The notes under the pieces are model-generated. The model made no database searches. It was not told the DNA's origin and was given only the letters and a program-made list of their open reading frames with translations. From Acidimicrobiales bacterium (GTDB lineage Bacteria > Actinomycetota > Acidimicrobiia > Acidimicrobiales > UBA8190), in NCBI GenBank assembly GCA_035506735.1, contig DATJOV010000082.1, positions 1 through 31,631 of the forward strand: a stretch of 31,631 nucleotides of DNA. Reading direction: 5' to 3'. This document shows, in pieces, positions 28,517 through 31,483 of the stretch. The position numbers were made by a program, and so were the translations under genes. Every line of letters begins with the position of its first letter. Position 1 is the first letter of the stretch.

Positions 28517-29665
28517 TCAGGTCCCGGGGGCGTCGAAGCGCAGCTGCTCGTCCCGGCCGGGAGGGGCGGGCGGGGACGGCGCCGGGGCGGGATGGAGCCG
28601 GCCCCGGCGCCCCGGTGCGGTGCCCCCCGGGGCGGTGACCGCGGCCGGGAGGTGCCCCACCCGGTCGCCGGCGTCGGGGCGCCGGCGCCGGCCCGTCACC
28701 GCGTCCACGCGGGCCTCGATGGCCACCTGGACGGGGCGGGGCAGGTAGGCGCGGCGGCCGTAGCGGGGGGCGATCTCGGCGTGCAGGGCCGGGCGCGCTC
28801 GGCGCAGGGACTCGAGGAAGTGCTCCTTCACCCCGGGCCGCAGGTGCAGGACGATGGGCGTGACCGACACCGCCCCGGCGTCGAGGCAGGCCCGGGCCAC
28901 GGCCTCGAGCTGCTCCTCGCCGTCGCTCCACCCCGGGATGACCGGGGCCACCAGGACCCCGGTGGGGATGCCGGCGGCGTTGAGGCGCCGCACCGCCTCG
29001 ACCCGCTGGCGGGGATGGGGGGTGCCGGGCTCGGTGGCGCGCCACACCTCCTCGTCCAGGGTGCCGATGGAGAGGTTGCAGTGCACCGTGGTGCGCGCCG
29101 CCGCCGCCACCAGGACGTCGAGGTCGCGCAGGATCAGCGTCGACTTGGTGAGGATCGAGAAGGGATTGCCGGCCTCGCCCAGGGCCTCCACGATGCCCCG
29201 GGTCAGGTGGTAGCGGCCCTCGGCCCGCTGGTACGGATCGGTGTTGGTGCCCATGGCGATCGGATCGCCGCCCCAGGTGCGGGCCCGCAGCTCGGCCCGG
29301 ACCCGCTCCACGGCGTTCACCTTCACCACCAGCTTGCGCTCGAAGTCCTCCCCCAGCCCGAGCCCCAGGTACTCGTGGGTGGGCCGGGCGAAGCAGTAGG
29401 TGCAGGCGTGGCTGCACCCCCGGTAGGCGTTGATGGTGTAGCGGAAGGGCAGCTGCGAGGCGGCCGGGACCTCGTTGATGACCCGCCGGGCGTTGACGTG
29501 GAGGAACTCGAGGCCGCGGTAGGCGCCCACCCCCACGTGCCGGTCGACCAGCTCCTCCTGGTCGAAGAGCATGGGCTGGCCCCCGTCGTCCTCGGCCCGG
29601 CGCCACCGCAGGGCCGAGGCTCGGGGGGCCGAGGGTCGGGGGGTGGTGCCGGACGCCGCCTCCAC
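28517..29665 (-). CDS. Rv2578c-family (SplB-like) radical SAM protein
   Basis: LPFRYTINAYRGCSHACTYCFARPTHEYL (CxxxCxxC), MGTNTDPYQRAEGRY, SILTKSTL, EPGTP. GTG 29665 is 7 nt after TAGGAT; the alternative ATG 29674 overlaps that hexamer. Confidence 0.92.
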   Translation of the reverse strand: MEAASGTTPRPSAPRASALRWRRAEDDGGQPMLFDQEELVDRHVGVGAYRGLEFLHVNARRVINEVPAASQLPFRYTINAYRGCSHACTYCFARPTHEYLGLGLGEDFERKLVVKVNAVERVRAELRARTWGGDPIAMGTNTDPYQRAEGRYHLTRGIVEALGEAGNPFSILTKSTLILRDLDVLVAAAARTTVHCNLSIGTLDEEVWRATEPGTPHPRQRVEAVRRLNAAGIPTGVLVAPVIPGWSDGEEQLEAVARACLDAGAVSVTPIVLHLRPGVKEHFLESLRRARPALHAEIAPRYGRRAYLPRPVQVAIEARVDAVTGRRRRPDAGDRVGHLPAAVTAPGGTAPGRRGRLHPAPAPSPPAPPGRDEQLRFDAPGT

Positions 29666-29688
29666 GGGGGCCATCCTAGCCCCTGAGG

Positions 29689-29702
29689 CGAACACGTGTT
29701 CG
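29689..29702. promoter_or_regulatory. LexA (SOS) box CGAAC-N4-GTTCG
   Basis: Perfect 14-bp palindrome CGAACACGTGTTCG matching the Gram-positive/actinobacterial LexA consensus, 10 nt upstream of the -10 TAGGAT (29678..29673). Confidence 0.9.
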
Positions 29703-29764
29703 ACCGGAGCCGGGGGCGGGCCGTGCCCGGCCGGGGGGACGGCCCCCGGAGGGAGGCCGGGGCG

Positions 29765-31483
29765 GTGCCGTACCATGGGGGCATACCCCCTGGAATCCCC
29801 CCCTCTTGGGGCCGGCGCGACGACTGGGCGCCTCCGGGCCGGGGCTCGCTCAGCCGGCGCCGGTTCCTCAAGGCCTCGGGCGCCGGTGTCGGGCTCGCCG
29901 CCCTGGGTGGCGCCGCCTACGCCGCCGACCGTGCCCTGGGCGCCGGCCCGCCGCGCCGGGCCACCCACGCCCGGCACCGCCGGCCGGCCCACGCCGACGT
30001 CGTGCGCACGGTGCACCTCGACAGCGGGGTGGAGGTGCCCTCGGCCCAGTGGATGGTGGAGGAGAACCAGCGTCCCGGCACCCTCGAGTGGGTCATGGTC
30101 TCCTCCACCCAGATCTCGGGCTACAGCGACCACGTGAGCGCCGTGGCGGGGGACGAGGTCACCCTGTACGTGGACCCGCCGCCGGTGCCCTACACCGTGA
30201 CCCTGTACCGCATGGGCTACTACGGCGGCCTCGGCGCCCGGGCCGTTTGGCGCTCGGGCCCCCTCACCGGAGCGGGGCCCCAGCCCGCCCCCACCACGGA
30301 GCCGGGGACCAACATGGTCGAGTGCCAGTGGCAGCCGAGCGTGCGGGTGCCCATCGGCGAGGACTGGCCCCCCGGGGCCTACCTCTTCAAGCTCACCGCC
30401 GGAGCCTCGGAGGCCTTCGGCGGCTACATCCCCCTGTGCGTGCGCGACGACGACAGCACCGCCGCCTACGCCATCATGCACTCGGTCACCACCTGGCAGG
30501 CCTACAACACCTGGGGAACCCGCAGCCTCTACGTGGGCCCGGGCGACGCCGGGGTCACGGGTGAGGCGGGGGGCACGGACCGCTCACGGGTGGTCTCCTT
30601 CGACCGCCCCTACGACCAGCGGGGCTGGGGCGCCCCCGACTTCATGGGCAACGAGTACCCCGTGATCTTCCGGGCCGAGGCGCTGGGCCTCGACGCCACC
30701 TACGTCACCGATCTCGACGTCCACCAGGACCCGGCCCGCCTCCTTCGCCACCGCTGTCTGTTCAGCTTGGGCCACGACGAGTACTGGTCGAGCGCCATGC
30801 GCGACGGGGCCACGACGGCCCTGGCCCGGGGCACCAACTTCGCCTTCCTCGGGGCCAACGCCGTCTACCGCCACATCCGGGTGGAGGACTCCCCCCTCGG
30901 GGCCAACCGCCGACAGGTCTGCTACAAGACGGACCTGGCCCAGGAGGACCCCCTGTGGGGCGTGGACCCGGCCGAGGTCACCGCCAACTGGCCCGATCCC
31001 CCCGTGCCCCGCCCCGAGCAGCAGCTCATCGGCTGCCAGTACGCCGACGTGGCTGCCAAGGCCGACCTCGTGGTGGGGGACGCCTCGGCATGGGTCTTCG
31101 ACGGCACGGGGGTCACCGACGGGCAGCACCTCACCCTGGTGGTGGAGGGCGAGTACGACCACTACTCCCCCGGGCTCCCCGGGACGCCGCCCGACGTCAC
31201 CATCCTGGCCCACTCCCCCGTCCCCAACCGCGGCCCGGGATCGGTCTCGGACATGACCTACTACAGCGTCCCGGGCGGGGGCGGCGTCTTCGCCTCGGGC
31301 TCAGCCTCCTTCGTTGGCAAGATGGCCGACGCCCCCCGGGTGCCGGCCGCCATCGTCAACCCCGCCGTCCCCGGGGTGACCGACGTCCTGCTGCGCATGA
31401 TGGACAACGTCTTCTCGGTGTTCGGGGCCGGGCCGGCCTCGGCCACCCAACCCTCGAGCGCCAACTGGGAGCAGTTCGCCTGA
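29765..31483 (+). CDS. Tat-exported DUF6605 / N,N-dimethylformamidase large-subunit-like protein
   Basis: Tat motif SRRRFLK (29852-29872) plus hydrophobic helix; TWQAYNTWG..SLY, VSFDRPY, YVTDLDVH, LGHDEYWS, AFLGANAVY. GTG 29765 has SD GGAGG 8 nt upstream. Confidence 0.85.
   Translation: MPYHGGIPPGIPPSWGRRDDWAPPGRGSLSRRRFLKASGAGVGLAALGGAAYAADRALGAGPPRRATHARHRRPAHADVVRTVHLDSGVEVPSAQWMVEENQRPGTLEWVMVSSTQISGYSDHVSAVAGDEVTLYVDPPPVPYTVTLYRMGYYGGLGARAVWRSGPLTGAGPQPAPTTEPGTNMVECQWQPSVRVPIGEDWPPGAYLFKLTAGASEAFGGYIPLCVRDDDSTAAYAIMHSVTTWQAYNTWGTRSLYVGPGDAGVTGEAGGTDRSRVVSFDRPYDQRGWGAPDFMGNEYPVIFRAEALGLDATYVTDLDVHQDPARLLRHRCLFSLGHDEYWSSAMRDGATTALARGTNFAFLGANAVYRHIRVEDSPLGANRRQVCYKTDLAQEDPLWGVDPAEVTANWPDPPVPRPEQQLIGCQYADVAAKADLVVGDASAWVFDGTGVTDGQHLTLVVEGEYDHYSPGLPGTPPDVTILAHSPVPNRGPGSVSDMTYYSVPGGGGVFASGSASFVGKMADAPRVPAAIVNPAVPGVTDVLLRMMDNVFSVFGAGPASATQPSSANWEQFA

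Follow-up and report, generated by a model that had tools for sequence, protein, structure and literature searches.

Where in the cell, and on what, would a radical S-adenosylmethionine (SAM) enzyme work that is placed under the control of the SOS repressor LexA? The question is raised by a gene on a 31,631-nt contig (C82, DATJOV010000082.1), whose full length is called the window here and which belongs to an Acidimicrobiales metagenome-assembled genome (MAG) of 3.4 Mb (74.7% G+C, 482 contigs, 91.6% completeness). The gene encodes a SplB-like protein (COG1533) that is preceded by a LexA box and ends in a disordered tail carrying a short glutamine-led peptide. The gene is an ordinary member of a known SOS radical SAM family, and neither it nor its LexA control is new. 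Taking all evidence together, we consider it probable that this LexA-repressed enzyme is tethered through its tail to the sliding clamp DnaN and acts on a DNA lesion. The argument rests on the following features of the gene, with residues numbered in the ATG form of the protein (P0001, 385 aa); pLDDT is the predicted local distance difference test.

28517..29674, minus strand: Rv2578c-family (SplB-like, COG1533) radical SAM gene, stop codon at 28517-28519 (translation, Pfam, NCBIfam, AlphaFold2, Foldseek).
29393..29416, minus strand: CxxxCxxC (C87, C91, C94), the radical SAM [4Fe-4S] cluster motif, invariant in alignments A1 and A3.
28520..28630, minus strand: disordered C-terminal tail rich in Pro, Ala, Gly and Arg, residues 349-385 (pLDDT below 50 in both structure models).
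28529..28555, minus strand: RDEQLRFDA, tail residues 374-382, predicted beta-clamp-binding peptide (DnaN co-fold interface, homologue alignment).
28535-28546, minus strand: QLRF, residues 377-380 (translation).

The product is readily placed. Two in-frame starts are present in the open reading frame (ORF), ATG at 29674 (385 aa) and GTG at 29665 (382 aa), of which the GTG is the likely real one. The protein matches the Pfam family Radical_SAM (PF04055) with 60.9 bits (E 2e-16, cut-off 29.5), and among the NCBIfam models NF038135 ('Rv2578c family radical SAM protein') fits best, aligning from position 2 to position 313 of its 317; since the score of 377.2 bits lies below the 430-bit equivalog threshold of this model, we refer to the protein as an Rv2578c-like branch in the Acidimicrobiia. 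The cut-offs of the PA0069 family (NF033668; 249 bits, cut-off 360) and of PF20903 (24.3 bits, cut-off 27) are not reached. In the phylum-wide alignment A3, which spans three actinobacterial classes, the architecture of the Rv2578c family is present, with R23, W24, the three cluster cysteines and G142-Q149 invariant and H277-R279 at least 90% conserved. Two AlphaFold2 models, one built from A1 and the other from A3, agree on a confident alpha/beta core (residues ~40-327) that matches many radical SAM structures and, together with the cluster motif, assigns the protein to the radical SAM superfamily. Both models give a pLDDT below 50 for residues 16/17-36 and 349/355-385. The initial annotation, a reading of the DNA alone, had pointed out the cluster motif, a QPMLF near the N-terminus (29578-29564) and the QLRF (28546-28535) in a tail it took to be disordered; all three motifs lie at these positions, and the disorder of the tail is borne out by both models.

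Relatives carrying inteins are common in the family (LAGLIDADG and Hint domains; NF038136), such as P0084 (661 aa) and P0112 (470 aa), and the representatives P0123, P0129 and P0133, among others of 500-715 aa, also contain inteins. Inteins reportedly favor replication and repair proteins, which matches their occurrence in relatives of this enzyme (PMC4760082).

What places the gene in the SOS response is the sequence just upstream of it.

29689..29703, no strand assigned: LexA (SOS) box TCGAACACGTGTTCG, as read on the strand of the gene (sequence search, genome sites, homologue conservation).
29673..29678, minus strand: -10-like hexamer TAGGAT (TANNNT type), between the box (10 nt away) and GTG 29665 (7 nt away) (sequence reading).

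The perfect SOS box that had been noticed at 29689-29702 is indeed there: the palindrome CGAACACGTGTTCG is perfect, and at 29689-29703 it widens to TCGAAC-N4-GTTCG. Taken by itself within the window, such a box is not significant, as one match (a perfect one) was found with up to one mismatch allowed and 0.55 were expected. Genome-wide there are six distinct TCGAAC-N4-GTTCG sites, vs none for the reversed control pattern, and the box is shared with imuA' (C44), a dinB-like Y-family polymerase gene (C428) and ruvC (C274), standing directly upstream of each; imuA', Y-family polymerase and ruvC are the classical actinobacterial SOS set. The best genomic box, ATCGAACACATGTTCGAT (C44:1178-1193), lies just upstream of an Rv3395c-type ImuA' gene (NF058630, 142.7 bits), presumably the head of an imuA'-imuB-dnaE2 mutasome cassette, and a further perfect box (C428:9667-9682) precedes the gene for the DinB-like polymerase (domains IMS and IMS_C; L010:1354-2664, minus strand). 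Two contigs carry the box TCGAACGGGTGTTCG at one end, in opposite orientations (C274:20207-20221 and C286:3521-3535). These contigs probably abut; the site would then separate ruvC from a divergent ORF of 200 aa without a family match. Another palindrome, CTAGAACGATCGTTCTAG (C182:19891-19908), also fits GAAC-N4-GTTC; as a TetR-family gene and a SnoaL-like gene diverge from around it, we read it as a TetR operator and rejected it as a LexA box.

Among 77 usable homologue loci from species-representative genomes of Acidimicrobiia, Thermoleophilia and Actinomycetes, 66 have GAAC-N4-GTTC within the 170 nt upstream of the cluster codons (background rate 0.0037 per locus), and the distance between the box and the opening R-W codons of the family is usually 3-50 nt. 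The LexA control proposed by the initial annotation is thus supported by its genomic company and by these loci, and for the family it had already been published: chromatin immunoprecipitation sequencing (ChIP-seq) of Mycobacterium tuberculosis LexA gave a peak at Rv2578c/Rv2579, with RecA-dependent induction (PMC3381160). Moreover, splB has been named a core SOS gene, with SplB-type radical SAM proteins (COG1533) among the conserved SOS genes of several phyla (PMC8565304), and the same type is listed with conserved SOS genes elsewhere (PMC3765255). The LexA set of Streptomyces venezuelae likewise includes a radical SAM gene, whether an orthologue or not (PMC9380542). It is therefore well supported, by genomic company, homologue conservation and the published ChIP-seq data, that the box in the window is a genuine actinobacterial LexA operator. 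In many database entries the annotated protein begins with 'MFD', 'MFA' or 'EHMF', which is the SOS box (ATGTTCGA) in translation (P0010-P0033; L024, L032, L039, L044 and others); the annotated starts of these entries are probably too far upstream, the true start adjoining M/V-R-W.

The box had also been described as lying over the -35 region of a leaderless promoter. Here, the TAGGAT hexamer and its spacing fit, and the box would span about -38 to -24 of the promoter so placed, which makes a leaderless start repressed at its -35 region plausible. A scan of 29500-29950 for promoters and terminators of the E. coli type found nothing; what suggests a leaderless or near-leaderless transcript is the hexamer and its distance from box and start.

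If damage calls up the enzyme, what directs it to its site of work? A candidate answer lies at the very end of the protein, RDEQLRFDAPGT, where the linker of the tail differs in length and sequence among the homologues and a short conserved peptide stands at its end. Beta-clamp-binding motifs take the forms QL[SD]LF and QLxLxL, and of their positions 1, 2 and 4 are satisfied in the window protein by Q377, L378 and F380. Tails of close Acidimicrobiales homologues read EQLPLLPP, EQLRFG(S/P), EQLSFGS, EQLTFGS or EQLRLL, those of Solirubrobacterales QQSLF, QTSLF or QPSLF, and those of Mycobacterium, Nocardia and Kribbella QPTLF, QLSLF, QLALFG or QQTLF. With regard to the QxxLF-like end that the initial annotation ascribed to Rv2578c, the four Mycobacterium/Mycolicibacterium homologues examined end in QPTLF (two of them), QLSLF and PEPTLF. 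Hexameric forms (QLNLGL, QLPLDL, QLALQL) appear among the 50%-identity representatives at the same position as the pentamers. In A3, QLRF aligns column for column with the canonical QLxLF and QxxLF termini.

To count such peptides, we scored Q..[LMFI][FLW] or QL.[LF].[LF] within the last 12 residues. The motif is present in 50 of 73 complete actinobacterial homologues, while 500 shuffles of the last 40 residues averaged 0.45 and never exceeded 3, and the background in the organism's own genome is 4 of 1284 long ORFs. This is a strong enrichment. The same terminal type recurs beyond the Actinobacteria, in all seven relatives sampled from plasmids and chromids of Legionella, Sinorhizobium, Azospirillum, Paracoccus, Ralstonia, Methylobacterium and Gemmatirosa, that is in Proteobacteria and Gemmatimonadota (QLDLFAGIV, QLSLL, QLTMF, QLSLF, QGSLF, QYSLF and QLSLGI). 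All four alphaproteobacterial members of this sample (Sinorhizobium, Azospirillum, Paracoccus, Methylobacterium) also have GTTC-N7-GTTC boxes upstream. Judged by its sequences, the tail of the family shows the pattern expected of a beta-clamp-binding motif, namely a Q-led penta- or hexapeptide in interchangeable forms at the end of a disordered, variable linker.

A structure prediction of the tail with DnaN, which the initial annotation had suggested as a check, points in the same direction. The genome's own DnaN (L017:1498-2616, 28-row alignment) was co-folded with tail residues 341-385, and the interface score ipSAE was 0.72, 0.72 and 0.73, vs 0.02 for the best of three controls. The runs share at least 45% of their contacts, with a partner pLDDT of at least 46. 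Confident contacts connect tail residues 374-382 with DnaN residues 170-175, 248-253, 284/286, 324/326, 350/352 and the C-terminal 366-373, a site that we take to be the canonical pocket between domains II and III. The role of the C-terminal QLRF as a clamp-binding peptide, as the initial annotation had it, is thus supported, in the form of a prediction, by the position of the terminal motif across the family and by the modeled docking in the DnaN pocket.

In these respects the tail resembles those of established clamp-binding SOS proteins. Pol IV/DinB, ImuB, Pol V and Pol II combine LexA control with a short Q-L-x-hydrophobic peptide in a disordered region; their cargo, however, is a polymerase or polymerase-like scaffold, in contrast to the radical SAM enzyme of the window. 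The DinB-like protein of this genome carries an internal QLSLPF, followed by an extension of about 75 residues. The clamp peptide of mycobacterial ImuB is QLPLWG, and peptides of the Pol IV/DinB and ImuB type dock in a pocket that includes the C-terminal residues of the clamp (PMC10421592), as the tail does in the co-fold. A literature search found no paper that ties Rv2578c, PA0069 or COG1533 radical SAM proteins to the sliding clamp, most subscription journals being beyond its reach.

The nearest described relatives share much of this arrangement. Rv2578c-family proteins (NF038135) have in common with the window protein the N-terminal M-R-W, CxxxCxxC, the AMGTNTDPYQ and HLRPG blocks and a LexA box directly upstream; they differ in having DDGALPGL where the window protein has GQPMLF, a terminal QxTLF instead of QLRF-DAPGT, and dhaA as divergent neighbor of Rv2578c, whereas that of the window gene encodes a Tat-signal DMFA2_C protein. 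The PA0069 family (NF033668) of Proteobacteria shares the core, LexA boxes (GTTC-N7-GTTC in its alphaproteobacterial members) and Q-led termini, found in six of six proteobacterial members, but its N-terminus (GRGA…RFE…DDGW) is without the RW…LF element of the window protein.

Several observations weigh against a clamp-tethered repair enzyme at this locus. The hydrophobic residue expected at position 5/6 of the clamp motif is missing, as QLRF is followed by D381 and A382 (EQLRF-DAPGT), leaving a degenerate motif; homologues with this position filled have, for example, QLPLL, QQSLF or QLNLGL. About a quarter of the close Acidimicrobiales homologues lack the tail, which is accordingly not indispensable. 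The co-fold score is to be read with care as well: of 80 solved complexes, 58 reach the mark used for it, as do 2 of 110 mismatched pairs, and these counts hold only roughly here because our own alignments were used. As many clamp-peptide complexes have been solved, a pass shows resemblance to known clamp ligands rather than binding, and it may reflect the model's memory of these structures. The assignment to the Rv2578c family stops short of the equivalog threshold, and the likeness to spore photoproduct lyase (SPL) is remote (TIGR04070; 26.5 bits, cut-off 400). Finally, neither lexA (PF01726) nor recA (PF00154) was found in the 91.6%-complete MAG, where a weak Peptidase_S24 match (26 bits) is present on C33; LexA is present in 18 of 20 relatives, and both genes are probably located on unassembled or unbinned contigs.

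The other end of the protein raises the question of whether a second clamp contact exists.

29603..29608, minus strand: R23-W24 codons, the invariant opening of the N-terminal linear element of the family (A1 and A3; pLDDT below 50).
29564..29578, minus strand: QPMLF, residues 33-37, QxxLF-like (translation; pLDDT below 50).

The candidate peptide with QPMLF is DDGGQPMLFDQEE. According to A3, the element to which it belongs consists of M-R-W, 8-12 mostly acidic residues and a short hydrophobic patch; there, conservation reaches at least 90% for L36 but not for Q33 and F37. The patch reads GQPxLF in Acidimicrobiales, AGTLF, AERLF or GGLF in more distant Acidimicrobiia, DDGALPGL in Actinomycetes and RLPGY in Solirubrobacterales. 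QPMLF thus aligns to LPG[LY] in Actinomycetes and Thermoleophilia, its Q is gone in several distant Acidimicrobiia, and the PA0069 branch lacks the element altogether, so that QxxLF is confined to Acidimicrobiia-type sequences. In comparative terms, QPMLF is the Acidimicrobiia form of a family element M-R-W-x(8-12)-x-x-L-[FP]. As this element is conserved and remains disordered even with a diverse alignment, it is a conserved linear motif of some kind, which could serve as a second clamp contact, a contact to substrate or DNA, or one to another partner. The claim of the initial annotation that QPMLF is a second clamp motif is less convincing than that for the tail, since the QxxLF that is invariant in close Acidimicrobiales relatives gives way to LPG[LY] in the other classes.

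An arrangement in which both motifs bind the clamp, with QPMLF and QLRF in separate pockets of the DnaN dimer or with the N-terminal peptide taking the place of a lost tail, is nevertheless worth weighing, and we regard such bivalent tethering as possible but doubtful. QPMLF is an exact QxxLF pentamer in a segment predicted to be disordered by both models, Q..[LF]F is nearly invariant (105 of 106 close homologues with a complete N-terminus), and clamp motifs in N-terminal position are known elsewhere, for example in E. coli Hda. The distribution of the tail is suggestive, too, as 28 of the 29 tail-less forms belong to lineages with an N-terminal QxxLF and 35 of 37 'LPG' lineages retain the C-terminal motif. 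This association is, however, not significant once relatedness is allowed for (about nine tail changes on a FastTree tree of the core), and an independent-pairs comparison was undiscriminating because the N-terminal state hardly varies within pairs. The family-wide alignment to LPG[LY], with only L36 conserved, the Q lost in AGTLF and AERLF and an unrelated N-terminus in PA0069, also argues against the N-terminal contact, and F37 precedes the first confident strand (residues 41-47 in the A1 model, 44-47 in the A3 model) by just a few residues, so that access to the clamp pocket may be hindered.

Conversely, QLRF itself might be a decayed or repurposed remnant that does not bind the clamp, or one whose partner is a different SOS protein, for example RecA or an adaptor of the ImuB-C type. 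The absence of the last hydrophobic position of the consensus (QLRF-D-A), the sharing of the EQL[RST]FG form by a whole subclade and the existence of tail-less homologues would agree with this, and SplB-like radical SAM genes do occur in operons with ImuB-C domain proteins (PMC3765255). Yet the conservation of EQL[RST]F behind a linker that varies argues for selection, and both its alignment to canonical termini and the co-fold score of 0.72, vs 0.02 for the control, speak for clamp binding; we consider a remnant unlikely. Least probable in our view is an enzyme that is damage-induced and clamp-tethered and repairs no lesion, acting instead by base or nucleotide modification, mutagenic or marking, or on a protein stalled on DNA. 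Substrates are not known for any member of the Rv2578c or PA0069 families, the similarity to SPL is distant, radical SAM chemistry is highly versatile, and related SOS modules of radical SAM, DUF4130 and uracil-DNA glycosylase (UDG) proteins have been suggested to be thymine modifiers (PMC3765255). Set against this, the nearest solved fold is that of a DNA photoproduct lyase, and the partners in the regulon are repair and tolerance genes. Known clamp clients, furthermore, act on DNA.

As for the reaction, the nearest solved relative is SPL, which as a radical SAM enzyme works on DNA itself (SplB; PDB 4fhc, 4rh0; TIGR04070). Foldseek returned SPL structures as the nearest solved ones (E 1.6e-7, TM 0.42-0.47, ~18% identity), with weak similarity at the cluster motif and residues 185-260. 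Unlike SplB, with which it shares only this ~18% identity, the window protein belongs to a host that is not a spore former; to our knowledge, neither SOS control nor a clamp-binding tail has been described for SPL. Profile and phmmer alignments to SPL in the PDB reached only the cluster motif and residues ~185-260, a fragment query gave no match, and the catalytic Cys and Tyr of SPL could not be mapped. The SPL likeness is too remote for its reaction to be transferred. Chemistry on a DNA lesion is still the most likely activity of the enzyme, and we infer it purely by analogy.

We can now return to the reading that we prefer, a clamp-tethered enzyme acting on damaged DNA, and sketch how it would operate. 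LexA would repress the radical SAM gene by binding an operator that overlaps the -35 region of its leaderless-type promoter, and upon DNA damage its cleavage would release the gene along with imuA', dinB and ruvC. The enzyme so produced would comprise the core (~40-327) and a disordered linker of about 55 residues finishing in EQLRF, which may be the local version of the terminal Q-L-x-[LF] or QxxLF peptide of the whole COG1533 SOS radical SAM group. The hydrophobic pocket that DnaN forms between its domains II and III is the predicted docking site of this peptide, and the enzyme would thereby be held on DNA-borne clamps, be it at forks, gaps or repair patches. There, by analogy with SPL, a 5'-deoxyadenosyl radical might be used on a DNA lesion, either for direct reversal or for processing. 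The initial annotation had envisaged much the same, a damage-induced enzyme recruited to the replisome for a lesion; the recruitment is now better founded, while the chemistry is untouched by our analysis and stays an inference.

The radical SAM gene stands alone between unrelated genes, a divergent one for a protein with a twin-arginine translocation (Tat) signal and a DMFA2_C domain and a convergent one for a pyridoxal phosphate (PLP)-dependent enzyme. The divergent neighbor (29696-31483, plus strand) has an N,N-dimethylformamidase beta-like C-terminal domain (PF20254, E 1e-105), and its gene has the following likely start.

29765, plus strand: GTG, likely start of the divergent neighbor, after GGAGGGAGG (sequence reading).

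At a distance of about 62 nt from the LexA box, this gene may share the operator. The gene order and the divergent pairing are retained beside a homologue of 89% identity (P0003).

Beyond the locus, the Rv2578c and PA0069 families might together form, across at least three phyla, a class of clamp-riding radical SAM enzymes that the clamp delivers to stalled forks or post-replicative gaps for repair or processing. The enzyme of the Acidimicrobiia would have gained a second, N-terminal QxxLF, with which it could hold both DnaN pockets or do without the tail; we put this forward tentatively, as an extension that may well prove wrong. SplB-like radical SAM genes, including Rv2578c of M. tuberculosis and PA0069 of Pseudomonas aeruginosa, are among the most widely conserved members of the SOS response (Actinobacteria, Proteobacteria, Bacteroidetes, Verrucomicrobia), and the value of the present finding lies in a clamp lead for this family as a whole, of which the copy in the window is a slightly degenerate example. 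If the conserved clamp peptide is true, it would supply tools for finding the function of these enzymes, such as motif mutants, peptide competition, griselimycin and co-localization with DnaN. Their workplace would then be clamp-loaded DNA, and they would join the proteins that vie for the clamp once damage has occurred.

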